From a virus, in IMG/VR virus record IMGVR_UViG_3300022902_000004, positions 126,268-190,267 of that record: a stretch of 64,000 nt of DNA; one strand, 5' to 3'. The notes below the pieces were generated by a model. That model saw nothing but the letters and a program-made list of their open reading frames with translations. It made no database searches and was not told the origin of the DNA. Shown here piece by piece: positions 1 through 25,110 of the stretch (position 1 is its first letter; each line of letters begins with the position of its first letter). A program made the position numbers and the translations under genes.

Positions 1-3000
1 AACGTCGATCGCCGCCCCGAAGGCATCAAATGTTGGCCCAATTATTTTCGATGTCCTCAATAACTCGTCAGCGTCTATGACCTTAGAAATGCCAATCAAC
101 GCAGACATCAGTGTTTGCATTGAAAAATCAATGTCCATCTGGAGTTTAACAATATCTATTGCCATCAATTTTTTCGTTGACTTAACAATCTTTTTTTCTA
201 AATCGGCGATAGAATCGATGATGCCGATCATCTTGTGTGCCGCAGCCATCTTCGTTATGCTCTTTTTCGCTTTGGCATCATCCTCTGCAGCGAGCATCGC
301 CTTCTCAATCTTGCTAATGTTCTTGCCCGCGGCCAATTTCGCCGACGCCAAAAAATGTTCGCGGTATGTCTGCTGCACGTCGCCCGACATTTTCGAAAAA
401 CCATCTTTGTCAGACGCGATTGCTTTTTGAAGTTGCATTTGGGCGTAGAGACCAATGGCACCTTGTTTGTCACCTTTTTTCAGCGCTTCTTTATACCAAG
501 TTTGCATGAGCTTTTCATTAGCACCTGCTTCTTTGATTACGGCGTTATTGAGCCTGACTGCCGTTGTTTTCACAGCGCCGTTTATGGTTTTCTCAATCTC
601 TCTGAGCTTCTTCATCCCTCCGCCTGTGATATAGTCAGATACGCCAAACGTCATCGCGGAGAGCATTGACTCAGCAAAAACAACTCCCCTGTGCACGCCT
701 AGTTTCGAGAGACGTTTATCTTGTGAATCACCTCCAAATGTGACTGCGTCATACAGCCCAAATGCTGCTGCGACGATTGTTCCCAAGAAAGGTATCGCTT
801 TTAGAGCTGCAGTAATTTTTGGTAAAAACTTGCCGAGACCCTTTACCATTCCTGCCATCCGACCGCCCATTCCTTTCATGAACCCCGAGCCTTTCAGCAT
901 TTTGCCGAACCCGGTGGCCAGGAGCGACCCACCGATGGTTATCATGCTTGATGTGATCGATGATAAAAAACCACTCATGAATGCAGCTCCGGCGACGGTG
1001 GCAACATCCTTAAGCATCGGCTTAATGATTGGCCACAGTGTTTTCCAAATCTTTTCCAGTTGTGGCTTCAGGCTTGTCCATGCATTTCCTAGCGCTGCGA
1101 TAACAGGTTCTAAAAAAGAGCCTGCGCTTGCTTTTGCAGCACCCCCGCCGCCCATGTTGAACAATATTTCAAATATGTTCATGCCATCGGCTCCTTTGCC
1201 CGCCTCTTTCTTGATAGCCGCCGTTAGCTTGTCAAGAAACCCTTGAATTGCTGGCAGTACTGTATCAAACAGCTTCGTTGCAGCCGTTTCAATCGTCAGT
1301 GCTACCCCTTTCATGATGAATCCGGCAAACTTATTAAATCCTGTCTTCAGCTTTGTGAGGATGCTTCCGCCAGGACCTGCTTGTTCTTCGAACACTTTTT
1401 CAATGTTTGTAAAAAACGCGCTCCATCCATTTTCAGACTTGAACAGCTTTTCGAATGCGCCCTTTATACCATCAGTGAAGTTTTTTATCTTTGCAGGATC
1501 AAACAATTCGCTGATAGCTGACAGCATAGTTTTCACGCCAGGGAAATATTTCACAAACATATACGCGACTTCTCGGCCTGCTTTGTGTACCTTCAGAAGT
1601 GCCTTCTGGATATCTTTCAGAGCACCTCGCATTCCGCCTGCCTTCATGAGACCGACACCGAAGCCTTTGATGAACGCGTCGAAGAAGCCGGCATATTTTT
1701 CGACGTTCATCAAGTGATTGAGTTTCTTGATTTGCTTACCAAGATCTTGCATCACTTTCTTTTGTGTAATCTGTTGCTTGCCGGCTTTTTTGGCTTGCTT
1801 CTCAATATTCTCATATGAGAGCCCCTGCTTTTCCAGCGAGAATGCTGCCTCAAGCGCCGTGCCCTCAAGACCGGTTGTTTGCTCGAGGTATTGTCGTTGC
1901 TGGTAGCTCATCTTCGAAATATCGTTTCCGGCATTGAAGAATGATTTCCTCAACATATCAATTTTCTTGGCAGGATTCTGCGCTGCCATCAGCTTCATAG
2001 CGTCGATGTTCATACCGAAACCCTGAGCCAATTCTGATGCAGCCTTTGCCGTGTCAGAAAATCCGGAGAACTTTTTCATCGTGCCGGCCAGTTGCTTCAC
2101 CTCGATACCCAATTTCTTTGCATACACAACCATCGGTGCAAATGCTTTCGGGCCCAGGTGACCAAACGTCGAGACATCTATGTTAAGCTCTGCCATTCCC
2201 TTGGCCATGGTTTTGACACCCATCCCAAACTCTTCAGCCGTTTGCAGCGTTATTTTTGAGAATTCCTCGATTGCCCGGCCGACATCCTTTCCGCGGAGCT
2301 CAGCAATATTCATCAACTGGCCCATGTTTTCAGCCGTGACGCCCAAACCTTTTTGCATCATCGTAAGCTGCAAGCCTGACTCTTGGAAAACCCCTTTCAA
2401 TCGCGTGAACGATTCACCTGTTCCTTGAGCCAATTCGTTTACAGCCTTGAGTGCCCCTGCAATTCCCTCAGCACCGAAACCGAAAACACGAGTAACACTC
2501 AATCCAGTTCCGGCCAGATCTCTTGCTGATTTGCTAATCGTGTTTAGCTGGCTTGCGACAGCTTTTCCTGGCCCTGTGGCAATATCACCGAAAATGTCTC
2601 TAATTTCTTCGAGTGCGTCGGCGATTGCGGTGTTTCTCGGCAGAGTTTGGGCTGTTTCAATAAACGCATCGAATATCTTAAACGGGGTCGATAGGATTGT
2701 GATTCCTAACTCGCCGATTGCGCCTGCGATATTAAGGATTGCACTTCCAACATTTGTCATTGTGCTAAGGCCAGCAGACATTGCATCAGCAAATGCCCCG
2801 AAAACCTTCTTGCCAGTGATCAGAGGCTTTTTTGCCTTCTCCATCTTTTGACCAGTTTCTGCGGCGGCGGTGCCTAGATCACGGTTACCTTCTGCAGCTT
2901 TTTCGCTAGCGATAACATTTGCGTCCAAAGATGTGGTGACATCGTCAATTGCCTTTTGTGCTTCTTTGAGGCCCTCACCTTTCAAAGCATTACGCATCTT

Positions 3001-3123
3001 GACAACCAAATCAAGTTGTGTCGACAAAATCTTAGTTTGAGTATTAAGCAAAGTAGAACGAGCTTTCAACGCTTCGTTCATTTGATTTTGTATTTGTAGT
3101 TGGACTGAACCTTCATCTGCCAT
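1..3123 (-). CDS. tail tape measure protein (partial; ORF runs off window start)
   Basis: Manual reverse-strand translation from ATG (rc of cat at 3121..3123; start MADEGSVQLQIQNQMNEALKAR...) gives >500 codons with no stop. Product is alpha-helical, Ala/Gly/Lys-rich with long low-complexity stretches typical of TMPs. SD GAGGT lies 6 nt upstream. Position downstream of tail tube and two small genes fits a TMP. Not in ORF track because no stop codon occurs inside the window. Confidence 0.6.
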   Translation of the reverse strand, partial: MADEGSVQLQIQNQMNEALKARSTLLNTQTKILSTQLDLVVKMRNALKGEGLKEAQKAIDDVTTSLDANVIASEKAAEGNRDLGTAAAETGQKMEKAKKPLITGKKVFGAFADAMSAGLSTMTNVGSAILNIAGAIGELGITILSTPFKIFDAFIETAQTLPRNTAIADALEEIRDIFGDIATGPGKAVASQLNTISKSARDLAGTGLSVTRVFGFGAEGIAGALKAVNELAQGTGESFTRLKGVFQESGLQLTMMQKGLGVTAENMGQLMNIAELRGKDVGRAIEEFSKITLQTAEEFGMGVKTMAKGMAELNIDVSTFGHLGPKAFAPMVVYAKKLGIEVKQLAGTMKKFSGFSDTAKAASELAQGFGMNIDAMKLMAAQNPAKKIDMLRKSFFNAGNDISKMSYQQRQYLEQTTGLEGTALEAAFSLEKQGLSYENIEKQAKKAGKQQITQKKVMQDLGKQIKKLNHLMNVEKYAGFFDAFIKGFGVGLMKAGGMRGALKDIQKALLKVHKAGREVAYMFVKYFPGVKTMLSAISELFDPAKIKNFTDGIKGAFEKLFKSENGWSAFFTNIEKVFEEQAGPGGSILTKLKTGFNKFAGFIMKGVALTIETAATKLFDTVLPAIQGFLDKLTAAIKKEAGKGADGMNIFEILFNMGGGGAAKASAGSFLEPVIAALGNAWTSLKPQLEKIWKTLWPIIKPMLKDVATVAGAAFMSGFLSSITSSMITIGGSLLATGFGKMLKGSGFMKGMGGRMAGMVKGLGKFLPKITAALKAIPFLGTIVAAAFGLYDAVTFGGDSQDKRLSKLGVHRGVVFAESMLSAMTFGVSDYITGGGMKKLREIEKTINGAVKTTAVRLNNAVIKEAGANEKLMQTWYKEALKKGDKQGAIGLYAQMQLQKAIASDKDGFSKMSGDVQQTYREHFLASAKLAAGKNISKIEKAMLAAEDDAKAKKSITKMAAAHKMIGIIDSIADLEKKIVKSTKKLMAIDIVKLQMDIDFSMQTLMSALIGISKVIDADELLRTSKIIGPTFDAFGAAIDV

Positions 3124-3393
3124 GCCATACCTCTATACTAAATATGACTTCGAAAAAGTTAGGTGAATCTACGTAACCTTGCCGGCACTTGTTCTCTCTG
3201 GCGTCCCATTAATGCTCTTTGGTCTGGAGTGTTGTCAGACGCACTTTTTGATGTGTTGCTTGAATCAATCTCAGTAACAAACCTTTGTACAAACCATTTG
3301 CGTTGCCAAATCGGCAAATTCATCGCGTCATGAAACGTAAAGCCCATGTAATACATCAATGCAAATATAGGCTCGAGGTAGACCTCTTTGTCA

Positions 3394-4248
3394 TTAGGCG
3401 TCAGGCCAAAAAAACGAAGTGCCGATGGGCAGGTCTACCTCCGAAGACTCATAGCAACTTTCACAAGTCATAACGCACTTCATCTCGATGCCCGGCTCAT
3501 TGTCATTCATGAACTTGCGAAGTGCCCGACTGTCTCGGGCTGGCATGTTATGCACAAACATTGCTAGCTTTGAACGGTCTTCGATGTTGTCAACGGCAAC
3601 AACGGCTGCCTGGAGCCGACTGGTCACCATGCTATCGAGATCACCCGACAACTTCTTCTTTCTTTTTCGCTCTGCCGTTAGTGCAATATTTTGCTCGTCG
3701 GCGCCCGTTAGGAACCTGAACGTTACAACCTTCTTGCTGACTGGCAAAGTAAAGGTGAATTTGTTCTCGCCTGGTTCTGACGGTTCAATTTCGAGTCGCT
3801 TGATAGGAAGTTCTGCAAGACTGAATGACTGCTTTTGAGACACATCGCATTCTGGGCAAGGAATTTCGACCTCGTAATCAGAGCCGTACCCTGTAATCCT
3901 GACGGCAACCATTAGCGCATTACGGTCTCCGGAGATAAGCTGATCAACCCGGACTGCTTTGTTTACCAGACATGAACGAAGAAGTGCCGTGATGACAGTG
4001 CCCTTCTTGAGGAGAGCGCGACTGGTTAGAATATCCTCGTCCTTTGCCGTCATGGCCCGGATTTCAAGCGTTTCACAATTGTGCGCCGCCGAACCCTCTG
4101 GGTAGATTTTCCCCTGTGATGGCAGTGGTGCGGCATCAACTGGAATTTCCATTCCAAAATCTTCCCTCATCACATTTCTTGTCTGCATTCCACTAGCTTG
4201 CGCTCGCTGGGCATCGAAAACATGGTTCCCTTCTCTTTTGTTGCTCAC
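3394..4248 (-). CDS. hypothetical protein with two CxxC pairs (zinc-ribbon-like), in tail assembly/baseplate-hub position
   Basis: 284-aa ORF with GTG start preceded by SD AGGAGTG. Motifs CPEC...CESC. Lies between tail tube and TMP genes. Confidence 0.45.
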   Translation of the reverse strand: MSNKREGNHVFDAQRAQASGMQTRNVMREDFGMEIPVDAAPLPSQGKIYPEGSAAHNCETLEIRAMTAKDEDILTSRALLKKGTVITALLRSCLVNKAVRVDQLISGDRNALMVAVRITGYGSDYEVEIPCPECDVSQKQSFSLAELPIKRLEIEPSEPGENKFTFTLPVSKKVVTFRFLTGADEQNIALTAERKRKKKLSGDLDSMVTSRLQAAVVAVDNIEDRSKLAMFVHNMPARDSRALRKFMNDNEPGIEMKCVMTCESCYESSEVDLPIGTSFFWPDA

Positions 4249-4335
4249 GTATCACTCCTGTAATTGTCACCTGCATACTGTAGTCCTGTATGCACGCTTG
4301 TAAACATAAGTATAAGTGTGTGAAAGTCGTAGGAG

Positions 4336-5118
4336 TTAGTTTTCTGTGTCGTGTTTTATGTTATAAAATTCGTCTGCTGCGTTCCACAAAATATCTTCAA
4401 GCTCATGACTTGGAATGCCCAACTTAACATCAATGTATTTTTCTAGTCTTTTAAATGATGAAATCATTGATTCAACGTCTGGTTTTTTGCCCGTAAGATG
4501 GTATGATGAATCCAAAAAATTACCGAAGTTTTCTTTTCCAGGATTGTGTACGCGGGCGTCATCAGATTTTTGTGGGGTTATGGGTTTCTTTTTGTTATCT
4601 AGCGGCGTAGATTCAACGTCAGCGCGCTTGTTTTTGTAATATTTCCAGACGCGCTGAGCTGACGGTGATACACCAGGCTGCCTGTCTGGCATTAATTCAC
4701 CTGTTTCCGCCATGGCTATATCATACATGAGCGGACCAAAATTTTTCGATGCGGCTGGGCCATGCACCATACTAGCACCATTGCTGTTACTTGACGCTTT
4801 TTCTATATCAATCGTCCCCATAATGAATGATTCTGCATGTCCAGCCATTCCATCTGGAAGTATCCCGGCATGGTCGTCAAAATCGGCGAGAATGTCGCTG
4901 ACTGACACTTTACTTGCGCGGGCCATATCCTTAATTTCCTGAATTAGAAAATGTATAAACATACTCCTGTCAAAAAGAATGTACAGGATGTCGCCAGGTC
5001 CATCGCGATCCTTGTATACGGCTAACGCTAAATTGTCATTCGACGCCATTTTGGCGGTACGTGCTTTTTCTTGTAGGAGAGTTGTGCGGACGAAGGTCCT
5101 GATTGATGAGATGTTCAT
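4336..5118 (-). CDS. hypothetical protein (tail assembly module position)
   Basis: 260-aa ORF on the dominant coding strand between tube gene and TMP. No recognizable motifs. Confidence 0.4.
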   Translation of the reverse strand: MNISSIRTFVRTTLLQEKARTAKMASNDNLALAVYKDRDGPGDILYILFDRSMFIHFLIQEIKDMARASKVSVSDILADFDDHAGILPDGMAGHAESFIMGTIDIEKASSNSNGASMVHGPAASKNFGPLMYDIAMAETGELMPDRQPGVSPSAQRVWKYYKNKRADVESTPLDNKKKPITPQKSDDARVHNPGKENFGNFLDSSYHLTGKKPDVESMISSFKRLEKYIDVKLGIPSHELEDILWNAADEFYNIKHDTEN

Positions 5119-5244
5119 ATTACTAATTATCGTGCAGGATGGGTTCTGGACGTATCAATCACCAATGTGTATGTAGTATGTATTGAAATGATTCGGGAAG
5201 CACACGGGATGAGGTGGGACTGTTAGGTGATTGACATGATTGAG

Positions 5245-6048
5245 CTAGTTGTCAAAGTTCAAAGATGGATGTTCGTGCCCGTGGCAAATCTTACATAGAA
5301 CGATTCCGGATACATTTTGTGACGTGTGGTAATCAATCACTTTTTCAACGATTATTCTATTTTGTTCTGGTGTCAAGACATGACAATCAACGTCACTGCG
5401 GAACTTCTTGATTATCGCTGCCATTTTTTCTTTATCATGATGGATGTGCAATTTTGTTGTGCTTGAGCATCTTTCACACTTGAATTTTGCTGCGGCGAGC
5501 TTTGGAAATTTCCATTCGCTGTATAGTCGGTTATTTGAATGGCAAAGAGCACCGATTGTTGACGTTCCGCCTTTCCATTGCGGGTGTTCTGATCCTGTCA
5601 AAGATGGAATAATACCGGCCAATCTATTTTTTGACATTATTTTGCTATACTTTTCTCGTTTTTCGGTTGTCCATGTTTTTGCGACCGATCTTCCGGCAAT
5701 GCGGAGTCTTTCATCATCATGCTTCGTTATCCCTTTATTCCAGACAATCATTTCTCCAGATTTCAACATTTCCCGCCGGGAAGCCTGGCTTTTCTTTTGT
5801 GCGTTTTCATTGTGGCCCCAGTTATTTTTGATACGCGCTTGATGACCTGGGCAAAACTTTGAATATCCTTTTGTGATTCCATGGAATTTTGTCTTTGACA
5901 TGCAACCACAAGCACACGTAGGCTGTTTATGCTTGACAACTGCAGCCAGATATATTGCCTCGCTTGAAAGCTTATGCGCTTTTTGTGCATGAATACGCAA
6001 TGAGTTAATTTTTTCAGTTTTGTAATTACAACTTGGACATAAAAACAT
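5245..6048 (-). CDS. freestanding homing endonuclease-like protein (HNH-like with NUMOD3-like repeats and N-terminal C2H2-type zinc finger)
   Basis: N-terminal CPSC...H...H. Repeats WNKGITKHDDE / EHPQWKGG resemble NUMOD3. C-terminal KLHIHHDKE...LTPEQNRII...CKICHGHEH is HNH-like. Inserted between tube gene and tail assembly genes. Confidence 0.5.
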   Translation of the reverse strand: MFLCPSCNYKTEKINSLRIHAQKAHKLSSEAIYLAAVVKHKQPTCACGCMSKTKFHGITKGYSKFCPGHQARIKNNWGHNENAQKKSQASRREMLKSGEMIVWNKGITKHDDERLRIAGRSVAKTWTTEKREKYSKIMSKNRLAGIIPSLTGSEHPQWKGGTSTIGALCHSNNRLYSEWKFPKLAAAKFKCERCSSTTKLHIHHDKEKMAAIIKKFRSDVDCHVLTPEQNRIIVEKVIDYHTSQNVSGIVLCKICHGHEHPSLNFDN

Positions 6049-6088
6049 AGTCCCTCCCTATGACACTAGTATATCAATGGGAGGGACT
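6049..6088 (-). promoter_or_regulatory. GC-rich hairpin (AGTCCCTCCC-loop20-GGGAGGGACT) sequestering the SD of the HNH-like HEG; doubles as terminator-like structure after tail tube gene
   Basis: The 3' arm GGGAGGGACT directly abuts the HEG ATG (6048) on the minus strand, followed by UUUUUAU. Confidence 0.55.
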
Positions 6089-6117
6089 ATGTAAAACCTC
6101 GTTATCGTAACGTTACA

Positions 6118-6606
6118 TCAAAATTGAAGCACGGCGTTGTCATACCTGACCGTGAGTGCAATCTCTGATGCGTCTGACGTGCTGTAATCTAGTGCACCGA
6201 AATCAGCCGCTGTCAAGAATGCACCACGGATATCCCACAATTCAACGACTGTACCGACCGGATCAAGCATCTTCAACTGAATGTCGCGCTTGTAGAAGTC
6301 TGCGTAGCCTGCTCGACCTGAGACCGACTCGAAGTGTGTTCGAATCCATTCCATAACCTGCTGAGCGCCGGATGGAGCAATTGGGTCGTGAAGCGTAATC
6401 GATAGTGTTTCGAATGTTGCCTTGCCTGCCACATATCGTTTGTGATTGATATACGGAATTTCCAGCTCTTCAATCGCAATGTTTGGTCGCGAGGCAGTCT
6501 TCACAATGAAGGCGTCGATGCCTTCAACAGCAAGGACCCACCTAAACTGACGTTTTGGCTCAAATTTATTCGGAAGCATGTCCGTTACTGATAGTGTTTC
6601 TGCCAT
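6118..6606 (-). CDS. tail tube protein (T4 gp19-like)
   Basis: 162 aa (T4 gp19 is 163 aa). N-terminal RQFRWVLAVEGI and C-terminal ELWDIRGAF...DYSTSDASEIALTVRYDNAVLQF resemble gp19 C-terminus (LWP..VG..LDW...TFEVTLALDYWE). Lies directly downstream of the sheath genes. Confidence 0.7.
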   Translation of the reverse strand: MAETLSVTDMLPNKFEPKRQFRWVLAVEGIDAFIVKTASRPNIAIEELEIPYINHKRYVAGKATFETLSITLHDPIAPSGAQQVMEWIRTHFESVSGRAGYADFYKRDIQLKMLDPVGTVVELWDIRGAFLTAADFGALDYSTSDASEIALTVRYDNAVLQF

Positions 6607-6660
6607 TTTAATCTCCTAAGACTGAGGCTTCGTTATGTTACAGGTCTAAGTATGGTAAAC

Positions 6661-7179
6661 CTAGAATCCCGACAACACAGCTTCCATTTTTTCTGCCATC
6701 TCGTCGTAATTGCTACTTCCGTTGGCACCCATGTTGACGACCTTTCTGCCGTTTACAATGATCCACCCGTTTCTGCCGTCAATTTTTATTTCTGCATCTG
6801 GGTATCGGCGCTTGAATTTTGCCCTCAACGATTTTGCAGCAGACATTGATGCGGGACCTGCTTGGTTATAGCTTCGTTTGCGGGGCTTTCTGCCTGTCGG
6901 TGAGTAACCATAATTCTGATCGCGACCATAATTTTGTTCATTGACCTGTTTCGAAGGTGCCAGTCGATTCGTCATGATCCCATAAACGTCTCCGTTTCCA
7001 AAATCTACGTCGGCCATGTCACCCATTTTGTGCATTTTCTTGACAGTGCCTTTCCTTGTTTTACCAAAGATCTCCGTTGTAACAATATCGCCTGGTTTTA
7101 CTACCTTTCCTACTGGTTTGGCACGCCATGGTGTGCTTTCTCGAATCAAGTTTCTAATTTGTCGTCGTGTGATTTTCAT
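6661..7179 (-). CDS. MKIT-tag family protein (basic; putative capsid-targeted internal protein)
   Basis: Starts MKITRRQIRNLIRE. 172 aa, Lys/Arg-rich. SD AAGGTGGA. Paralog of the 20.7-25.4 kb cluster. Confidence 0.6.
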   Translation of the reverse strand: MKITRRQIRNLIRESTPWRAKPVGKVVKPGDIVTTEIFGKTRKGTVKKMHKMGDMADVDFGNGDVYGIMTNRLAPSKQVNEQNYGRDQNYGYSPTGRKPRKRSYNQAGPASMSAAKSLRAKFKRRYPDAEIKIDGRNGWIIVNGRKVVNMGANGSSNYDEMAEKMEAVLSGF

Positions 7180-7182
7180 GGG

Positions 7183-7440
7183 TTACATCCACCTTTGTAC
7201 TTTTCTATTGAGTACCTTCATCGCCTGATATTTGATTCCTGGTGCTCTAAAACCGCCGCCGATACGTTCAGCCTCATCGTCGATATACCTGATCAGTGAG
7301 TCAATCTCTCTTTCAACGTTTGCCATAAGGTCGTCGCGCTCCTGGTCCTCATCATCAGAAACCGTGCCGTCCGCGTTCATCTCTGAGAGGATCTTCTCTT
7401 CATTGATAAGTCTTCGTAATTGTTTTTTTGTAATTTTCAC
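7183..7440 (-). CDS. MKIT-tag family protein (acidic; putative capsid-targeted internal protein)
   Basis: GTG start, MKITKKQLRRLINEE. SD AGGAA overlaps the sheath stop codon. 85 aa, acidic C-terminus. Confidence 0.55.
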   Translation of the reverse strand: MKITKKQLRRLINEEKILSEMNADGTVSDDEDQERDDLMANVEREIDSLIRYIDDEAERIGGGFRAPGIKYQAMKVLNRKVQRWM

Positions 7441-7449
7441 GTGCTATTC

Positions 7450-10400
7450 CTAGATATTGTTGCTTACCACGAAGTCAAGCGAGACGAACTCGATTGATTT
7501 TGTTGGCTGTAAGAAGATTTTACCGCGGATGGTGTTATTCTCAATGTCAGCCTGTGTCGTTGTCGACGCGTCAATCTTGACCTTGAATCTATCCAACCCA
7601 CCTTGTGACTGGACGGCTGCCAAGATCGGTTGTACCCTCGCTTCAAATGATGCGATTGTAGATGCCTGGTTTGGCTCAAACAAGAATGTTCGTGCCACAT
7701 CTCTGACCTTTCTACGAATGTCGATTAGCAAACGTCGTACGTTCACACGGTCGAGAGCGCTCTGTGCTGCAAGCAATGTTTTCTGGCCGAATACGGTTAC
7801 TCCGGAATTTGCCTGGACGTCACCGATGATTGGGTTGACATCAGCGCTGTAAAGTGCATCACGATTTGCCTGTAGAAGCTCAACCGTTGGATACAATGCA
7901 CTCTGCAAAGCACCTCGTGAGAAGCCTGCAGGTGCGAACCAAGGATGACCAATTGCATCATTCAGTGCCATGGCACCAAGAACAACAGCCGAAGACGGTG
8001 CTTTCACATTCGTCTTGGTTGCAACATCCTGAATTACCACGTCTGGGAAGTATGCTGCCGCAAACGATGAATCCAAAGCCCTCGATTGGAAAGCGTTGAC
8101 CGTGTTCGTCACGCTGATTACCTGAGCTGATGATGTCACGAACGTGTTAACTTCGTCCTTTTCCTCGATGTCCATGACATACAATGCATCAAATCGTCGT
8201 TCGACTGATTCGATTGCGTAGTCTGTAACAGATGAGTGACGAAGTCCAGGGATTGCCAACAACTGAATGTCAACATCCTGTTTTGCTTCCATCACGTCGA
8301 CTGCTTTTCGCAACGCTGCAACGGTTGGTCCGTTCTTGCCGCCCTGCAAAGTCGAGTCATCCATCTCACGACGAACAGCCGTATCGGTGAATTTCGATTT
8401 CTCAGAGTCAAATACGTTGGTTCCGTCATATCCGCCCTGGAGTGGGAATGTGAACTTCAAGTATTTCTGGCTTGGAATGTGCGCAAAATCCTTAGTTGAA
8501 TCCAAGAATCGAACGTTGGTCTTCGAAGTTCCGTCACGGTCATCAAGCGATGATGCCTGCGTTCCATTTCGGCGATACGAAGCAGCTGCCCACTGTTGTG
8601 GGTCTGGCCTGTCATTCGATCCAGTAATAACCTGCACCCTCTCAAGAGAGAAGAAGTTGTTGTTGAAACGGTCAGCGTCGAAAATCGTTCCGCCCACGTC
8701 AGCAGCTCCAGCATTATCACCGACTAGTGGGTTCTGCCAACTTGTGTGGAATTTCGGGTAATACCTTGTGAAGGATAGCAACGATGCATCCAGTTTTTCA
8801 TTCTTGTTAGGAAGTGAAACGCTTGTCTTCGTTTCGAATTGGATTCCCCATGTGAATGACTGCTGGACGTTTTTCTTTGGTGAAGCACCGGTAGAGATCG
8901 ACTCACGCATTGGGATAGGAGGCTGAACAACCCGTTTGAGCAGATCAGATGAAATGCTGGCTGACATCGAACCTCGCAATGTGGCAAAGCTTCCTGTTAG
9001 GATTGAGCCTGCTGTTCCTGCGATTGTTGTGCCTGACGTAATCAAGTGATGAATTCCACGGAAACCTGTTGGCAATGCCGTTGGGTCCAATCGATCATTC
9101 TTCAAGTCGCTACTCAACGTCACTCGGACGTAGTTTGAAACGCTTGGGTAATCACCTTCGACAACGATCTTCTGGTTTCCAGTTGCTGCTTCGAAGTCGA
9201 AGTATGTTCGCTGGTCACCGATTCGCTTTGCAATGTAGTTGTCAGACGACGGATCCAAACTCAAGCCTCTGAATGATTCCAGAACTGCTGGGTTCAAATC
9301 GTTGTCTGTGAAGCGTCGAATCAACACATCGAAAGTGCCGTACTTATTATTCGCCTTTGATGAAGCCGCGATGTTTTCAATCGTGACCTTGACTTCGCCT
9401 GCACCGATGAGACCGTCAGACAATGTTGTTAGTCTGAACAAATCCTTGTTTGCGCCACCGAATTTCTGTGATACGACGAATGGACTGAATGCCGCCTCAA
9501 ACCTGTCCTCGAAGTTCTCGAAGTTAGGTACACCAACGGTTGTTGCCGATGTTGCAGAACCTACGTCCCGGTTGAGTGTCGAAGTCAAAAGCAAAGCAAC
9601 TGGCTCAAGATTTGTGAACCAGACTGTTGGGTTGATCACGCTTGTACCGGTCGCAACAGCAAGTGCTGGATCGATATCGTAGTGCGTATATAGATAATGC
9701 CCAGCATCTTCGATTTTCAATGGGTCTGTGTTGAGCACGTTTACGAAGTAGTTTGGAACGCTGGGGTCGAATGATGCCGTAACAACATTCTTGTATGTTG
9801 CGTTATTTTTGTGACCGTTGAATAGGAGAACGAACTCCTGCTTCGAGTTACTAACATCGACGCTACCAATGTTTCCGCCAGCATTACCGACACCTGATCC
9901 GCCAAATGATGGATAAGCGGCTTCGTTTGCAGCCGGAGCCATGTTACCAGCAAGGTCAAGTGAGTGACTCAATGCCGGGATAACACCAGAAGGTGCCATT
10001 AGCATACCACGGAGAATCGGAGTTGCGTTGACGTTCTTCTGGATGCCAGCGTCGCTAAGGTATGTTGAACCGTTTGACTCAGACATGATAGCTGCCAGCA
10101 TGTATGAACGGCCGAGCGCTCCACCTGGTAAGTTTTCAGCACCTGAATATGAGTTATCGCCGACGAGCCCGTTTGACTGGACAAGCCTATCACCAACAAC
10201 AAATCCTGCGTTGGTTACCTTGCCCTGGTTGTTACCCGTCGAGAGCCTTGCAGAACCGTCACCGGCACCAAGAACACGAACGAATACACCCGAATCGGCG
10301 TTCCTCAACCATTCACGCATTGCAATCGGTCCAAATTTTGTGCCGTCGCTATTCCCGAACGTTGAAATAAAGTCTTGAAATGTTGCCATAGTCACTGGGA

Positions 10401-10533
10401 CGAAAGCAGGACCTCGTACTGACGTTCCTACAACACCTGCAGGAATTCCAGAGGGAGAAACCTGTGTGGGTCCTGAAAGGTCAATTTCATTCGCCACTAC
10501 GCCCGGACTAACTGGAAAAGTGAATTCTGCCAT
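7450..10533 (-). CDS. contractile tail sheath protein, paralog 1 (gp18-like, ~1027 aa)
   Basis: N-terminus SPGVVANEIDLSG...GVVGTS.RGPAFVPV and C-terminus FGQKTLLAAQSALDRVNVRRLLIDIRRKV match conserved sheath N- and C-domains. Roughly 50% identical to the adjacent paralog in those domains. Confidence 0.85.
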   Translation of the reverse strand: MAEFTFPVSPGVVANEIDLSGPTQVSPSGIPAGVVGTSVRGPAFVPVTMATFQDFISTFGNSDGTKFGPIAMREWLRNADSGVFVRVLGAGDGSARLSTGNNQGKVTNAGFVVGDRLVQSNGLVGDNSYSGAENLPGGALGRSYMLAAIMSESNGSTYLSDAGIQKNVNATPILRGMLMAPSGVIPALSHSLDLAGNMAPAANEAAYPSFGGSGVGNAGGNIGSVDVSNSKQEFVLLFNGHKNNATYKNVVTASFDPSVPNYFVNVLNTDPLKIEDAGHYLYTHYDIDPALAVATGTSVINPTVWFTNLEPVALLLTSTLNRDVGSATSATTVGVPNFENFEDRFEAAFSPFVVSQKFGGANKDLFRLTTLSDGLIGAGEVKVTIENIAASSKANNKYGTFDVLIRRFTDNDLNPAVLESFRGLSLDPSSDNYIAKRIGDQRTYFDFEAATGNQKIVVEGDYPSVSNYVRVTLSSDLKNDRLDPTALPTGFRGIHHLITSGTTIAGTAGSILTGSFATLRGSMSASISSDLLKRVVQPPIPMRESISTGASPKKNVQQSFTWGIQFETKTSVSLPNKNEKLDASLLSFTRYYPKFHTSWQNPLVGDNAGAADVGGTIFDADRFNNNFFSLERVQVITGSNDRPDPQQWAAASYRRNGTQASSLDDRDGTSKTNVRFLDSTKDFAHIPSQKYLKFTFPLQGGYDGTNVFDSEKSKFTDTAVRREMDDSTLQGGKNGPTVAALRKAVDVMEAKQDVDIQLLAIPGLRHSSVTDYAIESVERRFDALYVMDIEEKDEVNTFVTSSAQVISVTNTVNAFQSRALDSSFAAAYFPDVVIQDVATKTNVKAPSSAVVLGAMALNDAIGHPWFAPAGFSRGALQSALYPTVELLQANRDALYSADVNPIIGDVQANSGVTVFGQKTLLAAQSALDRVNVRRLLIDIRRKVRDVARTFLFEPNQASTIASFEARVQPILAAVQSQGGLDRFKVKIDASTTTQADIENNTIRGKIFLQPTKSIEFVSLDFVVSNNI

Positions 10534-10559: not shown

Positions 10560-13500
10560 TTATTCAAAACTTACGCCATTGTTTGTAATAATGAAGTCAA
10601 CCGAGATGAACTCAATCGCTCGGGTGGGCTTCACTTTGATTTGACCACGAAGTTTGTTCTGGTCAATTTCCGCCTTTGTGTTATTGCTTTCATCACAAAT
10701 AACCTGGAATGCTTCGATTCCCTGTCGGGCTTGAACGTATGTCAGCTCACGGATTGAATCAGCAGAGAACTTCTTTCGAGTTGTCGCATCATTCTGTTCG
10801 AATGCAAGACCTTGCGCGATAGAACGAATCCTTCGCTTTACGTCAATCAACATCCTTCTTGTGTTGATTCTGTTTAGTGCCGTTTGTGCAACCTGTAGCG
10901 TTTTCTGGCCGAAGATTACGTAGCCTGATCGTGGGAACGTTGCGATTGGGTTGATTTTAGCATCGTATAGAGAATCCCTATCCTTTGCTGACAACCTATT
11001 CTCAACGTTTTTCACGAAGCCTAGCGCTCCACGGTTGAAGCCTGCCGGAGCAAACCAAACCTGCTGGACACGGTCGTTGAAACCTAGTGCGCCCATTGCG
11101 GCAACAGACGGTGGAACCTGAACGACCCGGTTATTCACCTTGTCCTCGATTGTAACATCTGGGAAGTATGTCGCGACGTAGTTGTTATCAATCGCACGTG
11201 TTTCGAACTGGTCAATTGTCTTTGTGACATCAGAATTTGCTTCAGAGTCGTCGTACAATCGGTTCGAGCTCTTGTCGAATTCCACAGCATCCATAACATA
11301 CAATGCAAGACCGTATTTCTTGACCGCATCTGAAGCATGGTCGGTTACGAATGGCTCTCTCACACCAGGGATTGCCAACAGGTTGATCCTTGATGAGATT
11401 GGGTTTGTGATGATGTCCACAGCGGTTCGAATCGATGCAACATTGTTGTTGAGTCGTCCGCCGCCCGCCTGGTTAGCAGTTCCGATTAGTGCAAGACCAA
11501 TTCTGTCTGCGGCTCCGGGTGTTGGTTGTGCTTTACCGCCTGTGTCAGATGACAATGCTTTGTCACGGAAGTATCCTTGGTCTTCATCAAGGATGTTCGT
11601 TCCGTCAAATCCACCGTAGAACACGTTTGTGAACTTGTGGTACTCGGTGAAGCGATTGAACAGTGCCGATGATGTTGCGATCAACGACGCCATGGTGATT
11701 CGTCCTGTCCGTGCACCGTCAGTAACGGTGTATGTGGATGGGTTCGGACGACCATTTCGTACGTATGCAGCTTGGAGCATGTGCTCTCGGGCTGTGCCGG
11801 TGACTTGCGTCGTGACATCAGAAAGCTGTGTTGCGGCATTATATAGGGCCACTCGTGCCAAGGTGAATTTGTTATCGTTGAAGAAGTCTGCACCGGAACC
11901 GGTTACCAAACTGTCCATCTTCGAGATACCCTGGAACTTCGTGTATGTTCTAACAAGTGGGTTGATTCCTGCACCTTCATTTGAACGAAGGACCGCATCA
12001 GTGATACCGAGTGTCGAATCGTTGCTTGATGAAACAGGCAGCGGATCAGTTTTGACGCCCCAGTATAGTCGACCGTCAACACGTTCTGTGCTGCCAGGAT
12101 CGCCTAGGAATGTTGGGCTTATACCCTGGACTGCACCCTTCGTCACTTTCACTCGGAAAGGAAGAGGAGGTACGATAGAACCGGTGGTGGCCATAACTGA
12201 TGTGCCTGATGTATGGTAAACACCAAGGCGACGCCTTGTTACATCACCAATTGTTTCTCCGTTGAGACCTGTAAGTGCCGTTGAGCTATCAGTCAGCGTA
12301 TCAGTCGTCTTGATGACCGGAACTCCCCGGAAACCGAATGGCAACGAAGTTTTTGGAACCTTCTCCAACTCAACCTGCTCATTCATTACGATCCGAACAC
12401 GCTGCGAAACGTTCGGGTATTTTCCTGTTACAACTAGGCGGCGCTCATCTGGTGATTCCTGGTCCCAATCAAATCGAACCTTTTTGTCGCCAATGAGGCG
12501 TGCAACGTATCGCTCAGAGTTCGGGCCAAGTGAGCAGTTCGGGTACCTTTCCAGAATTGCTGAATTGCCGTCGCTGTCCTCGAATGATCTGATTTGCACC
12601 TCGAACAAACCGTATGGTTGTTTTTCGTTTGTGCTTGCTCGCAGACCTGCAATCGAAACCTTGAATTTTTCGTTGGCGTAAACACCATCGTCAATTGTTT
12701 CAAAACTGAACAAGTCATACTCAGCATCACCATATGGCTGTGAGATGAAATTCGTTGTTCGTGGAGTCTGGTATCGTGTATCATATCGACCGAATAGCTG
12801 CATAAACCCGACCGGAGTTCCGGCGGATGTGCTTTTGTTCGCTGAACCTGAAACCAACGCGACAGTTGGTACAACACTTGAAATCACAGGAGCAAGTGCA
12901 TGCTCGACTGCGAAATCGAGGTAAAGCAGATGCTCTTCCTCTTGGAACTTGAGTGGATCTGTGTTCAGGACCTTGCCGATGTAGTTCGCGTCGTGGGGAT
13001 CGAGTGAGGCGGTCAGAATTTTGATTCCGTCATAGCCTTCATCATACGCCCAGTCTTTTCCAGACGAAGAGCTAAGAATCAGTTTGAAATATTTGTTTTG
13101 TGTCAATGGGCTGGATGGAATTGAACCGACGAGTGCCGAGTTGTACCCGGGCGCAGACTGATCAGCGTAGGTTCCTGTATTGTCTAGCGCCATCATTCTT
13201 GTGCCAGTGGCGAGCAAAACTGCGCCCCGGACGAGGTTCATAGACGATGCATTGTTGATGCTGCTATTGTCAGTAAACATCGGGTAGCCATTTGTTTCAT
13301 CGTTTGCAACAGCATCATGCCGCGCGACGATGAACTGGACAAGCCCTTGACTGCCAGGCAAATCAGTATTCAACGAATCGCTGCCTGTAATTCTAAATCC
13401 TGCATTCTTGACAATTCCTGACCCGCGGGTGTTTGAAATATCGGTCGCAGTCTCATTTGCACCGGCACCGAGTAATCTCACATATGTAAGTGCTGTCCTA

Positions 13501-13727
13501 TTGTCAAGCCACTGCTTAACAGCATATGGACCAAACCGCTTTGCGTTGAGTGTTCCAAATTTTGTTTCGAAATCAGCGAAAGATCCGACAGTAACCGGAA
13601 CGAATGCCGGTCCTTTCTCAGATGTGCCGACAACACCGGCTGGCACACCCGTTGGCGCAACCTGCTGACCTGATAGGTCTATTTCCTGGTCGAAAAATCC
13701 AGGAGATCGAAATGTTTGCTCAGCCAT
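10560..13727 (-). CDS. contractile tail sheath protein, paralog 2 (gp18-like, ~1055 aa)
   Basis: N-terminus SPGFFDQEIDLSG...GVVGTSEKGPAFVPV, C-terminus FGQKTLQVAQTALNRINTRRMLIDVKRRIR. SD AAGGAGAAAAC. Collinear homology with paralog 1 throughout. Confidence 0.85.
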   Translation of the reverse strand: MAEQTFRSPGFFDQEIDLSGQQVAPTGVPAGVVGTSEKGPAFVPVTVGSFADFETKFGTLNAKRFGPYAVKQWLDNRTALTYVRLLGAGANETATDISNTRGSGIVKNAGFRITGSDSLNTDLPGSQGLVQFIVARHDAVANDETNGYPMFTDNSSINNASSMNLVRGAVLLATGTRMMALDNTGTYADQSAPGYNSALVGSIPSSPLTQNKYFKLILSSSSGKDWAYDEGYDGIKILTASLDPHDANYIGKVLNTDPLKFQEEEHLLYLDFAVEHALAPVISSVVPTVALVSGSANKSTSAGTPVGFMQLFGRYDTRYQTPRTTNFISQPYGDAEYDLFSFETIDDGVYANEKFKVSIAGLRASTNEKQPYGLFEVQIRSFEDSDGNSAILERYPNCSLGPNSERYVARLIGDKKVRFDWDQESPDERRLVVTGKYPNVSQRVRIVMNEQVELEKVPKTSLPFGFRGVPVIKTTDTLTDSSTALTGLNGETIGDVTRRRLGVYHTSGTSVMATTGSIVPPLPFRVKVTKGAVQGISPTFLGDPGSTERVDGRLYWGVKTDPLPVSSSNDSTLGITDAVLRSNEGAGINPLVRTYTKFQGISKMDSLVTGSGADFFNDNKFTLARVALYNAATQLSDVTTQVTGTAREHMLQAAYVRNGRPNPSTYTVTDGARTGRITMASLIATSSALFNRFTEYHKFTNVFYGGFDGTNILDEDQGYFRDKALSSDTGGKAQPTPGAADRIGLALIGTANQAGGGRLNNNVASIRTAVDIITNPISSRINLLAIPGVREPFVTDHASDAVKKYGLALYVMDAVEFDKSSNRLYDDSEANSDVTKTIDQFETRAIDNNYVATYFPDVTIEDKVNNRVVQVPPSVAAMGALGFNDRVQQVWFAPAGFNRGALGFVKNVENRLSAKDRDSLYDAKINPIATFPRSGYVIFGQKTLQVAQTALNRINTRRMLIDVKRRIRSIAQGLAFEQNDATTRKKFSADSIRELTYVQARQGIEAFQVICDESNNTKAEIDQNKLRGQIKVKPTRAIEFISVDFIITNNGVSFE

Positions 13728-13808
13728 GTTTTCTCCTTAGCTTCAAATGTTCAAGAAGCGTCCATTGTAAGTATCCTCGAGAATGCAAAAATCAAATATT
13801 TCATGCAA

Positions 13809-19341: not shown

Positions 19342-19731
19342 ATGAAACACAAAACAAAACATAAGATAATCACGCCGGCGGATCTTCCTGATTACGAAGA
19401 AATGGGTGAACTGTACACTGATATGAATGACTTCCTGGGCAAAACACCGATGCTGGGGACACATATCATGCAATCTGAGTTGCCGTCCTGTCTTGTTTTT
19501 TATGTTGCTGGTGATTCCGTGCAAAGTGTTGCCGTAAGCGTTTCATCGCACAAAGACGAAATGCTATCGCTTGAAGAGCTTGTTGAAAGACAGAACGATG
19601 ATGATTTTTACGTTGTGTATAAAAACAGGGTTCCTAGCGCAACGTTCAGCCCGCGTGGTGCCCCGATCGTGGATCCAAGTAAATGTTATCGATTCAAGAA
19701 AGTCCCTGTCTACAGAGACTTTAGCATTTAG
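19342..19731 (+). CDS. hypothetical protein, plus-strand
   Basis: Starts MKHKTKHKIITPADL. SD GAGGAA 9 nt upstream. TATACT -10-like element upstream. Converges on and overlaps the ParB-like gene by 11 nt. Confidence 0.35.
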   Translation: MKHKTKHKIITPADLPDYEEMGELYTDMNDFLGKTPMLGTHIMQSELPSCLVFYVAGDSVQSVAVSVSSHKDEMLSLEELVERQNDDDFYVVYKNRVPSATFSPRGAPIVDPSKCYRFKKVPVYRDFSI

Positions 19732-20692
19732 CCAATTGGCACCAACGCTCTGTCAATAGATTCCCATCACGCTCAGCAGATTCTTTCTGTGGGCTTAATG
19801 GGCTTTTGATATTGATTTCAGCGTTCTGCAGCTTGTCATAAATCGCTGCCTTTCCAGCTTTACCGCCAATTGATTTGTCGTCAAGTTGGGGCATATCCTC
19901 TCGGGCGGGCGCTTTCGTGTTGCTTGGCACAGTTGCCAGGTTTGCCGAAATCTTCTTGATGATTTTCACGATCACTTCTTTAGGATCAGCACCTGGTTTG
20001 AAGCCTGCCCATTTTGCAATGGTCTTATCTTTTGATGAGTTCGAAACCATTTCATCGTTTAGCATTGGGCCGGGGGCTCGACGGTCTACCTGGCGTCCCA
20101 CATTTGCTGCCATCATCTTTTCAATTTCGCTCGATGACTTGCCCAGAATGTTGTTTGCGATCTTTCCTGATGCTGTTGGCATATCCTGGTTTGGATCTTT
20201 GTGTGCTGCGATGGCAAGTTGAGCTGCGGCGAGTTTCTGGGTTGTGTCTCCAGGAAGCTCTAAATCTTCGGCGCTGATTACACCATCCGGTCCACTGATT
20301 GCCCATACACCTGACCATCTATGGTGCCCATCGATCACATCATCGCCTGATACGGTAATTGAGCCGGGAGCGTCTGTTGTGTTTGAGGAGATTGCTTTTG
20401 CAAGAGCCTTTGCACTTCCCAATGGAAACGCCGCCGACTTCATCATGTCAATTTCTTTCTGTGTAGGTTTGAAATCCCGAATTTGTCTCATTGCTGGTTT
20501 TGACACTTTCGTCGTGTCGTCCGCTTTGACATTGTCGTGAGTGCCATGAAGGGCAGCCTTCAACTCATCCGGGTCAGGATGGTTGTCTACGAACGATCGT
20601 ACTGCACCGGGTCCACCCTTGGCAGCCTTGGCAATATCGTCAGTCACATCCTCAAAAAGGACATCAACAAGTTTTGGATAACGATATGCCAT
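19721..20692 (-). CDS. ParB/Srx-like nuclease-domain protein (putative)
   Basis: Motif VIDGHHRW after FKPTQKEID resembles the ParB N-terminal nuclease fold core (DGHHR). Confidence 0.4.
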   Translation of the reverse strand: MAYRYPKLVDVLFEDVTDDIAKAAKGGPGAVRSFVDNHPDPDELKAALHGTHDNVKADDTTKVSKPAMRQIRDFKPTQKEIDMMKSAAFPLGSAKALAKAISSNTTDAPGSITVSGDDVIDGHHRWSGVWAISGPDGVISAEDLELPGDTTQKLAAAQLAIAAHKDPNQDMPTASGKIANNILGKSSSEIEKMMAANVGRQVDRRAPGPMLNDEMVSNSSKDKTIAKWAGFKPGADPKEVIVKIIKKISANLATVPSNTKAPAREDMPQLDDKSIGGKAGKAAIYDKLQNAEINIKSPLSPQKESAERDGNLLTERWCQLAKC

Positions 20693-21006
20693 TAGTAATG
20701 CGAGTACCGTTTTGTTTCAATTGCCCTTAGCTCCCTGGCAAGGGTAAGATAACCTAGCGTATCTGCTGGCCCCGCGACTACTTCTAGCAAGGCAAGTTCA
20801 GCGAATTCGCCACCCTCATCATCACCCAACTCATCAGCCGCATCGGCCATTACAATTTCAAGAAAATTCTCAACCTGATATTCAAGTGCAGATCGTGTTT
20901 CAATGGGGGTGTGCATGGCTAGCGCTCGTTTGCCGACGCGTCCTTCGCTCATTTTTGATTTTTCTTTACGGATTGCTTTCCGTAATTGGTTTTCTGTTAT
21001 TTTCAT
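20692..21006 (-). CDS. MKIT-tag family protein (putative internal protein)
   Basis: Family-conserved start MKITENQLRKAIRKE at 21006 (SD AGGAAAGGA). The ORF-track 5' extension is unsupported by family conservation. Confidence 0.55.
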   Translation of the reverse strand: MKITENQLRKAIRKEKSKMSEGRVGKRALAMHTPIETRSALEYQVENFLEIVMADAADELGDDEGGEFAELALLEVVAGPADTLGYLTLARELRAIETKRYSHY

Positions 21007-21080
21007 GATACCTGTGTCCTTTCCTGTACGCCCTAAACACGCCATTGGTAGGTTACCTAAGCGTAATGTAAAGAAGCTGC

Positions 21081-21320
21081 CTAGTATGCATCGTGTGATT
21101 GCTCGTATCCATCATCCCGAACTTGCTGCAGGGCGTATCTGAATTCTTCTTCTATGTCGGAATATGACAGACCGGTCGACAGTCCGCCCGTAATCAATGT
21201 TTTTAGATCTTCCGCAAAGAAGTTGCTTGTTTGAAAACGACCATCTGGACTTTTCATTTCTGCCAGTTTTGATTTTTCGTGGCGGATAACATTACGTAGC
21301 TGGTTTTCTGTAATCTTCAT
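21081..21320 (-). CDS. MKIT-tag family protein (putative internal protein)
   Basis: MKITENQLRNVIRHE. SD GGAG. Preceded by a member of the conserved promoter family (21373..21400). Confidence 0.6.
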   Translation of the reverse strand: MKITENQLRNVIRHEKSKLAEMKSPDGRFQTSNFFAEDLKTLITGGLSTGLSYSDIEEEFRYALQQVRDDGYEQSHDAY

Positions 21321-21372
21321 TCTGATGCTCCGTTACGATCATAAATATCATGTCGGGTCGCTTTATGAATAT

Positions 21373-21400
21373 ATTTTATCACACCAGCACGAAACTTACA
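21373..21400 (-). promoter_or_regulatory. sigma70-like promoter family member (TGTAAG-N16-TAAAAT)
   Basis: Coding-strand sequence CGTGTAAG TTTCGTGCTGGTGTGA TAAAAT. Overlaps the stop codon of the upstream gene. Precedes MKIT genes 21320..20692. Confidence 0.5.
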
Positions 21401-22085
21401 CGGGCCCAACTTTCTTTGCAGGAACAGTTTTTCCGCGCCACATGGTGCCGTAGGTTTTGTTGCGCCTGTTCGGTGGGATACGGTCGCCATAAGAGTTGCT
21501 TGCAGCCAGGAATGGGGTGTGAATATGCCTCACCACCGGCCCATCATAATTCTTGTATTGTGCCATCGATGCTTTATCAACAAGCACGATGTTGTTGAAC
21601 TCTTCGATGAATTGGCCAACCATGATGTCAAACCAAACAGTAAGCCCGTCCATGCGACTGAATTCTTCAGATTGAACTCGGTGCTCATAATCAGTCAGAG
21701 AGAATTTTGTCCTCAACCTTGATGTTTCTGCGCAGCCCACACCTTCTTCATATGGGGTCTCCATTGCTTTCCATTCAAAATCGACGCCGTCAAAAACTCG
21801 CCTGATAAGCGGAAACACATTTTGTTGGGCCAGGTTGAACGCTTCCTGATTCCACGTTCTTGGACACGAACGATGTCGGGAATGCATATCTTCAATTTCG
21901 CGCAGAATTAGTTTCGATTGATTCTCAAAAAGGATTGCGTAATTGAGAGCTTTTTCCTGAGACAGGTTGTCCAGGATTTGGGTGTGACTCCACTTACTGA
22001 TGAGATGCTGGTGATGCTGACTTAACACGGCGGGTGTCACAGTAACATCGTCATTGTTAGATTCATTTAGCATGTTAGCTGACAT
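21396..22085 (-). CDS. hypothetical protein
   Basis: 229-aa ORF between MKIT family clusters. Overlaps the next gene by 19 nt. Confidence 0.5.
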   Translation of the reverse strand: MSANMLNESNNDDVTVTPAVLSQHHQHLISKWSHTQILDNLSQEKALNYAILFENQSKLILREIEDMHSRHRSCPRTWNQEAFNLAQQNVFPLIRRVFDGVDFEWKAMETPYEEGVGCAETSRLRTKFSLTDYEHRVQSEEFSRMDGLTVWFDIMVGQFIEEFNNIVLVDKASMAQYKNYDGPVVRHIHTPFLAASNSYGDRIPPNRRNKTYGTMWRGKTVPAKKVGPV

Positions 22086-22492: not shown

Positions 22493-22504
22493 TTCGTTCT
22501 CCTG

Positions 22505-23466: not shown

Positions 23467-23507
23467 AACCTCCGTTTAGAGATTATATGATGAATGAGCT
23501 GGATGTA

Positions 23508-25027: not shown

Positions 25028-25082
25028 TTGTGCCTCGTATATGTATCACTAAATATCTAATTGCACCCGAAATTACATAAAT

Positions 25083-25110
25083 ATTATACCACACATACAC
25101 GAATATTACA
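25083..25110 (-). promoter_or_regulatory. sigma70-like promoter (TGTAAT-N16-TATAAT with TGG extended -10), member of conserved family
   Basis: Coding-strand sequence ATGTAAT ATTCGTGTATGTGTGG TATAAT. Drives the coupled MKIT gene operon 25027..23508. Confidence 0.55.

Follow-up and report, generated by a model that had tools for sequence, protein, structure and literature searches.

A 14-residue N-terminal leader shared by exchangeable small genes, two of them inside the tail operon, as a probable capsid-targeting propeptide of an uncultured marine T4-like jumbo phage

The present analysis concerns a stretch of 64,000 nucleotides (nt) of viral DNA (the window; positions 126,268 to 190,267 of the IMG/VR record IMGVR_UViG_3300022902_000004) and two small open reading frames (ORFs) in it, ORF-A and ORF-B, which lie between the genes for the tail sheath and the tail tube. 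Coordinates are those of the window unless another locus is named, and every window feature given is on the minus strand. It was found that ORF-A and ORF-B begin with the same 14-residue leader as eight other genes of the window, while the remainder of each protein is unrelated to the others. The source phage belongs to an abundant, uncultured lineage of marine T4-like jumbo phages. With moderate confidence, the leader is interpreted as a T4-like capsid-targeting propeptide, carried by exchangeable cargo genes that would be expressed late in infection.

The leader has the consensus MKITxxQ[LI]RxLIxE and forms the N-terminus of ORF-A (MKITKKQLRRLINE, 14 codons, 7399..7440), of ORF-B (MKITRRQIRNLIRE, 14 codons, 7138..7179) and of eight genes in a main cluster at 20692..25432. 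These are located at 20692..21006, 21081..21320, 23508..23861, 23858..24100, 24097..24576, 24573..24815, 24812..25027 and 25181..25432, and the cluster also includes untagged genes at 21396..23466. A profile built solely from leaders of other contigs matched exactly these 10 genes in the window, always at residues 1-15 and with E-values of 3e-9 to 5e-4; the next-best match in the window reached only E = 0.03. Sampled loci of relatives contained 385 distinct leader-bearing (tagged) genes with a median length of 100 amino acids (aa). Glu14 was present in 384 of the 385, though the search pattern permitted Gln, position 12 was I, V or L, and the C-terminal end of the leader takes the form [LI]-[IV]-x-E. 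The conservation acts on the peptide and not on the DNA. Across the 385 genes Leu8 is encoded by all six codons, and the entropy of the leader is 1.2–1.8 bits at the third codon position as against 0.3–0.6 bits at the amino-acid level. Such synonymous codon diversity rules out a mere DNA-level repeat and argues against an expression leader acting purely at the nucleotide level. Past residue 15 the ten tagged proteins of the window display no detectable similarity to one another (best pairwise E = 0.02), and with unrelated bodies they are not true paralogues. The original prediction had placed ORF-A and ORF-B in an MKIT-tag family; both genes do carry the leader, but the word family is misleading, for nothing but the leader is held in common. 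None of the ten tagged proteins had a match above threshold in Pfam or PHROGs, and a full-text search of the literature on the leader sequence gave nothing relevant. AlphaFold models set the leader apart as an N-terminal helix, with a linker of low confidence behind it.

The head module of the window contains a T4 gp21-type prohead serine protease (32742..33407), which matches Peptidase_S77 at E = 8e-25 and the PHROG head maturation protease family at E = 1e-50, and which is presumed to be the enzyme that cuts off the leader. It is known that T4 gp21 cleaves after L/I-X-E and that the propeptides of the T4 internal proteins (IPs) are 10–19 residues long (PMC9026906). These propeptides direct the proteins to the prohead core (PMC9026906, PMC3012670). 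Both leaders of the tail-operon pair have a predicted protease site after Glu14 (I-N-E in ORF-A, I-R-E in ORF-B), and ORF-A has a second candidate site, L-S-E20. Past these sites ORF-A continues with EKILSE... from residue 15 or with MNADGTVSDDEDQER from residue 21, and ORF-B with STPWR... from residue 15. In addition, two conserved genes located between the protease and capsid genes have leader-like N-termini (a slash stands at the position of the possible cut): core190 (31765..32337), starting MAKMTKASLKGLIKE/C, and core92 (31446..31724), starting MAKRVRRITPGFLKKIIIQE/A (...RITPGFLKKIIIQE/A). Homologues of core190 from 37 loci keep M(A)K[ILVM][TS][KR]xxLKx[LIV]VKEC, some of them exactly as MKITKTQLKNLVKECL, and core92 is leader-like in at least 23 loci. 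When the leader profile was compared with 1488 ORF N-termini from 80 capsid loci, only the tagged genes, core190 and core92 scored. An acidic 580-aa scaffold-like protein (28525..30267) has an internal leader-like segment, SKLRRMVRE/AAED (aa 384-393). For the gp23-type major capsid protein (26575..28473), propeptide cleavage is predicted after Q-V-I-K-E60, and 80 relatives keep a cleavage-like site of the form ...Q[VLI]L[KR]E/[ASQ], whose position is homologous to that of cleavage in T4 gp23. The original prediction had likened the tagged genes to those for the T4 IPs. This analogy gains independent backing from the gp21-type protease, from the hydrophobic-x-Glu end of the leader and from the leader-like N-termini of the head-core proteins.

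ORF-A (7183..7440; MKITKKQLRRLINEE) encodes an acidic protein of 85 aa from a GTG start, and ORF-B (6661..7179; MKITRRQIRNLIRES) a strongly basic protein of 172 aa from an ATG start. The isoelectric point (pI) of ORF-A is 5.2, falling to 4.5 when the leader is left out, while that of ORF-B is 10.3 with a net charge of +17.6. The two genes therefore agree with what had been proposed for this place, namely two tag-bearing members between sheath and tube, one basic and one acidic. In the direction of transcription the order is sheath paralogue 2 (1027 aa, 7450..10533, with Phage_sheath_1 and Phage_sheath_1C domains), ORF-A, ORF-B and a gp19-like tail tube gene (162 aa, 6118..6606). The TAG stop of the sheath gene overlaps the AGGA Shine-Dalgarno sequence of ORF-A (7441..7452), as had also been foreseen, and the junction reads TAGGAATAGCAC-GTG, with a 9-nt gap between the sheath stop and the ORF-A start. 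This junction is kept in the related loci L001, L081 and L084. Only 3 nt separate the ORF-A stop from the ORF-B start, and a gap of 54 nt separates ORF-B from the tube gene. Both ORFs are real genes. The ratio of nonsynonymous to synonymous divergence (dN/dS) of ORF-B is 0.07–0.10 against two relatives and therefore reflects purifying selection, and ORF-A has 52 homologues with invariant residues.

The comparison covered about 80 relatives, denoted by labels such as L001 and L003, and the spacing between sheath and tube was scored in 78 of them. In 74 of these 78 loci just 29–80 nt separate the sheath stop from the tube start. It is therefore apt to call the two genes inserted into the tail operon, as had been claimed. 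The gap is occupied only in the immediate sub-lineage of the window and in two others, and apart from one endonuclease-like gene its contents are tagged genes only: four in L001, two together with the endonuclease-like gene in L003, one in L038 and two each in L081, L082 and L084–L086. The cassettes in this slot are exchanged between close relatives. In L081 and L084 the sheath and tube flanks are 94–99% identical to those of the window, yet the first slot holds genes with unrelated bodies. ORF-B itself occurs in a form of 165–172 aa with a Tudor/SH3-like middle module and in a form of 94 aa lacking this module. Between the window and L001 the synonymous divergence is 0.70–0.79 in the cassettes (ORF-A and ORF-B) as compared to 0.35–0.37 in the flanks. 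The deeper divergence of the cassettes therefore points to older alleles imported by recombination and not merely to fast-evolving genes. Across the slot-bearing phages the end of the sheath gene, the Shine-Dalgarno sequence and the leader are conserved and divergence begins past the leader, a pattern consistent with exchange by recombination at the leader.

Genes resembling homing endonucleases are found close to both tagged loci of the window. A Zn-finger/HNH homing-endonuclease-like gene (5245..6048) lies just downstream of the tube gene and is sporadic among relatives. A second endonuclease-like gene (25465..26547) lies beside the capsid gene and has in common with the first a Zn-finger N-terminal module (E = 7e-7). 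The C-terminus of one of the pair is HNH-like and that of the other PD-(D/E)xK-like, the latter as judged by eye only. Homologues occur sporadically at both sites in relatives (L003 5442..7097; L001 10561..11361). A terminator-like hairpin (26515..26545; 12-bp stem with 8 GC pairs, followed by a T run) stands immediately after the capsid gene stop, and because it falls within the annotated 5' end of 25465..26547, the true start of that ORF is probably further downstream. The position of these genes suggests that they are homing elements which may drive the exchange of cassettes.

Tagged genes also form arrays in the relatives. Arrays of 5–10 tagged genes stand beside the tube gene, and in L014–L018 and L020 such arrays, which include ORF-A homologues, lie directly downstream of it. 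L238 has at least 22 tagged genes in tandem (77..7928). The seven tagged genes of L237 (3415..5503) lie amid lysozyme, nuclease, RecA-like and ligase genes, and other arrays adjoin adenylosuccinate synthase. Outside the slot, homologues of ORF-A occur either in such arrays behind the tube gene or in non-structural neighbourhoods.

As regards expression, the motif ATAYTTA occurs 22 times in the window against 9.5 expected, with a strand bias of 19:3 toward the gene strand. Fifteen of the 19 gene-strand copies are intergenic, mostly 12–65 nt upstream of starts, and the motif precedes the capsid, scaffold-like, sheath 1, tube, adaptor-like and baseplate genes (sites at 4313, 6653, 13774, 16951, 17561, 28500, 30291, 31762, 45753 and others). 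In 75 of 80 relatives ATANTTA is present upstream of the tube gene, mostly 26–47 nt away, in spacers that are otherwise divergent. ATAYTTA is thus a candidate late promoter of this phage clade, in place of the TATAAATA of T4. The T4 late promoter itself had 2 matches in the window against 0.95 expected, neither of which precedes a structural gene on the gene strand. One candidate site, ATACTTA at 13768..13774, is 47 nt upstream of sheath 1 and probably drives a transcript of sheath 1, sheath 2, ORF-A and ORF-B; another ATACTTA (6647..6653) lies within the gap between ORF-B and the tube gene. Within 6000–14000 the ATANTTA motif precedes sheath 1 and the tube gene only, and ORF-A and ORF-B have no late-type motif of their own ahead of them. 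The pair therefore appears to stand at the end of the sheath transcript. A sigma-70-like site within the 3' end of the sheath gene (7544..7517) is no more than chance would give, and a generic scan for sigma-70 promoters and terminators showed no enrichment around either tagged locus.

A second motif, the composite GTGTAAG-N12-20-TAWAAT, was found 3 times in the window against 0.00 expected, always intergenic and on the gene strand (51897..51925, 49992..50020 and 21373..21401, with similar sequences at about 25083..25112 and at 52150..52182). The composites are mostly upstream of small non-structural genes and are candidates for a class of early or middle promoters. In the main cluster, three of the four transcription units have a late-type motif about 28 nt upstream of the first tagged gene. 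The early-type composite is present on only two units, both of which also have a late-type motif. In front of the tagged gene at 21081..21320 the tandem candidate promoters span 21342..21401 (early-type GTGTAAG-N16-TAAAAT at 21373..21401, late-type ATATTTA at 21342..21348), and in front of that at 24812..25027 they span 25050..25112 (CATGTAAT-N14-GGTATAAT, with ATATTTA at 25084 and 25056). The original prediction had proposed early expression of the main cluster and late expression of the tail-embedded pair. The second part is supported by the position of the pair inside a putative late tail unit with no room for a promoter of its own. The clean split between early and late did not hold, although two units of the cluster do have early-type promoters in addition. 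Judged by their upstream motifs, the tagged genes as a whole appear to be late, some units having early-type promoters besides.

The bodies of ORF-A and ORF-B gave no homology-based function in Pfam, PHROGs, PDB profile or Foldseek searches. The ORF-A subfamily consists of 52 homologues of about 87 aa whose invariant residues include E14, E20, G25 and E31; the block ERIGGGFRSPGI is highly conserved across it, and a 99%-identical copy is present on a 318-kb contig. The ORF-A model (predicted local distance difference test score, pLDDT, 82) displays the leader helix, a loop and a long helical hairpin. The consensus of the loop (residues 20-31) is E-M-N-P-D-G-T-I-S-D-D-E. When judged against a 12-residue EF-hand loop with ligands at 1, 3, 5 and 12, Gly at 6, Ile at 8 and flanking helices, positions 3, 5, 6, 8 and 12 fit, but position 1 is Glu and not Asp. 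There is a weak profile match to the EF-hand region of SCaMC-1 (E = 0.04) and no match to a Pfam EF-hand, and the resemblance may be taken as a lead only. In the family scans its only weak match was DUF7399 (E = 0.003). ORF-B had only five homologues among 5.8 billion proteins, and weak PHROG matches to phrog_7955/1693 (E = 0.003). Its model (pLDDT 67) begins with the leader helix and continues with a Tudor/SH3-like barrel (aa 32-69), from which a disordered NYG-rich linker leads to an alpha-beta3-alpha domain (aa 109-169). The barrel aligns by Foldseek with PDB Tudor domains at TM scores of 0.70–0.85 and a root-mean-square deviation of 1.2–2.0 A over about 53 residues, with E-values of only about 7e-3 and a pLDDT of about 76–81. 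In BFVD, Foldseek matched the ORF-B model to uncharacterised small barrel proteins only. Sequence-profile comparison with the PDB yielded no significant match, and tblastn with the ORF-A consensus and with ORF-B found no match in 50,697 phage records. ORF-B had been described as DNA-binding-like; charge is the sole argument for this, and the model has no recognisable DNA-binding fold. Small genes of L237 (7485..8208 and 9759..9938) start with MK[IV]GDLV..., similar to the start of the ORF-B barrel module (KPGDIVTTEIFGK...), and this likeness suggests that the module was recruited from a free-standing small SH3-like family.

Taken as capsid-targeting cargo, ORF-A and ORF-B would be accessory genes of a distant T4-like marine jumbo phage. 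Their leader (MKITxxQLRxLIxE) would be an amphipathic helix of 14 residues that serves as the targeting propeptide, docking the protein onto the prohead scaffold or core while the head assembles. The gp21-type protease would then cut after the invariant Glu14, at hydrophobic-x-Glu, and remove the leader, and the mature body would be kept inside the head and probably enter the next host along with the DNA. The bodies past the leader are unrelated, interchangeable modules, in ORF-A an acidic helical hairpin and in ORF-B a basic barrel with a small alpha/beta domain. Being apparently coupled in translation and lacking a promoter of their own, ORF-A and ORF-B would be made late, as proheads assemble. 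The slot which they fill, at the 3' end of the sheath unit, is a hot spot where cassettes swap between related phages, likely via recombination in or next to the leader-coding sequence and possibly aided by the neighbouring homing-endonuclease genes.

Several points weigh against this interpretation. Hydrophobic-x-Glu is a short and common motif, and the similarity of the leader profile to the head-core N-termini is weak for most homologues, with a median of about 2 bits. Apart from M-K and the terminal I-x-E, the leader has no similarity to the T4 capsid-targeting sequence (CTS). The invariant Glu20 of ORF-A may be part of the EF-hand-like loop and not of a second cleavage site. The early-type promoters on two main-cluster units and the tagged arrays among DNA-metabolism genes of relatives would also fit an intracellular role, and dozens of tagged proteins, encoded by a single genome, would make a very large load for one capsid.

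The main alternative is that the leader is an N-terminal helix without a capsid role, either a handle for a shared partner of cellular or phage origin, for example a chaperone, a hub protein or host machinery, or an expression or stability leader, and that the proteins act unpackaged inside the cell in host takeover or anti-defence. It owes this rank to the early-type promoters, to the neighbourhoods of the arrays in relatives, which are typical of non-structural regions, and to the number of tagged genes, which at 22 or more in tandem looks high for the cargo of a capsid. The model of ORF-A is also compatible with it, as the leader helix could belong to a helix-loop-helix fold. Nevertheless it leaves three things unexplained: the leader motif on two conserved head-module genes, and only those; the near-invariant Glu14 in a gp21-type context; and the late-type motifs that serve most units, the tail-embedded pair included. 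Such a role is considered unlikely.

A quite improbable alternative is that ORF-A and ORF-B are tail accessory proteins, such as assembly chaperones, tube-lumen proteins or decorations of sheath or tube, and that the leader targets the tail. The location of the pair between the sheath and tube genes, its probable co-transcription with the sheath and the tagged arrays directly downstream of the tube gene in L014–L018 and L020 would suit such a role. But nothing in the slot can be needed for tail assembly, because it is empty in 74 of the 78 relatives; moreover, unrelated bodies are swapped in it between near-identical phages, ORF-A homologues are also found far from tail genes, and the leader resembles the N-termini of head-core and not of tail proteins. 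Least probable of all is that the cassettes are mainly selfish or hitch-hiking DNA of little or no use to the phage, spread by homing endonucleases and leader recombination and positioned by endonuclease target sites beside conserved genes: the Zn-finger endonuclease-like genes adjoining both tagged loci of the window and lying sporadically beside the tube and capsid genes of relatives (in L003 between the tagged genes and the tube gene), a GIY-YIG gene adjoining P0005 and the deeper synonymous divergence of the cassettes would fit it, but the purifying selection on ORF-B and the invariant residues of the 52 ORF-A homologues speak against it, and as it addresses the movement of the genes and not their function, it is compatible with cargo targeted to the capsid.

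The other structural genes of the window conform to the assignment of the phage. They include the gp20 portal and the T4-type large terminase besides the gp23-type capsid, the Peptidase_S77 protease and the two tandem sheath paralogues. The sheath paralogues (the first of 1055 aa at 10560..13727) are about 33% identical, lie upstream of the tube gene and are both present in nearly all 80 related loci. Within the 50,697 phage records capsid identity reached only about 48%, the best matches being an uncultured huge phage, Flavobacterium phage immuto and Microcystis phage Mel-JY01, and the sheath-tube region had no nucleotide match by megablast. IMG/VR contains at least 594 relatives for the tube gene and at least 597 for the capsid gene, on contigs of up to about 290 kb. 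Immediately downstream of the main cluster lies a gene for a 323-aa protein with a DGHHRW motif (19721..20692), which is ParB/sulfiredoxin-like by eye and had no Pfam match at E <= 0.01.

Among known systems the closest likeness is to IPI, IPII, IPIII and Alt of T4, which have a short N-terminal propeptide (10–19 aa in T4, 14 aa in the present case) on otherwise unrelated small proteins (PMC9026906, PMC3012670). The two systems have further features in common: hydrophobic-x-Glu at the end of the propeptide, a gene for a gp21-family protease in the head module, both basic and acidic members, and a content that differs between close relatives. The sequences are unrelated, since the T4 CTS (MKTYQEFIAE) has only M-K at positions 1-2 and the terminal I-x-E in common with the leader, which by this comparison appears to be an analogue and not a homologue. 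The scale also differs, T4 having a repertoire of three or four, as against 10 genes in a 64-kb window, at least 22 in tandem in one relative and 385 in the sampled loci. Furthermore, unlike in T4, conserved head-core genes also have leader-like N-termini, and two members are inside the tail operon. In the jumbo phages phiKZ, 201phi2-1 and SPN3US, many head-internal proteins, namely inner-body and ejection proteins, are cut on the C-terminal side of Glu by a diverged homologue of gp21 (PMC9026906). The phiKZ-like phages differ in their cleavage motif (S/A-X-E), in their larger substrates and in a head lineage other than the one with the gp23-type capsid found in the window. To our knowledge, nothing like a short N-terminal leader common to small, unrelated cassettes is on record for them. 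In toxins fused to MuF and carried in phage heads, the N-terminal trafficking module is constant and the C-terminal payload variable. The tagged genes are like such polymorphic delivery systems in their constant N-terminal delivery part, swappable payloads and rapid exchange of cassettes. MuF-type systems have large trafficking domains and toxin payloads, in contrast to the helix of 14 residues described above, where no payload matches a known toxin or family. The best available explanation is an analogous but unrelated leader, greatly expanded in an uncultured clade of marine jumbo phages and common to its head-core proteins.

It is tempting to go one step further, though only tentatively. 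The marine T4-like jumbo clade may have expanded the CTS principle into a genome-wide system with dozens of cassettes per genome, in which unrelated small proteins are fused to the one leader that its head-core proteins also use. The proteins would be loaded into the capsid and injected as a large, quickly reshuffled arsenal, and new cassettes would be installed even inside the tail operon by leader recombination. The pair in the tail operon is the clearest natural experiment in the window, with one slot that holds differing tagged cargo between flanks that are 94–99% identical. If the leader is indeed a removable capsid-targeting propeptide, it would provide a simple sequence rule for listing the injected proteins of widespread uncultured ocean phages. 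It could also be a portable tag for loading foreign proteins into such capsids. The hundreds of distinct small injected proteins listed in this way would be prime candidates for anti-defence or host-takeover factors, and the internal-protein principle, studied mainly in T4 and its close relatives, would be scaled up by an order of magnitude.

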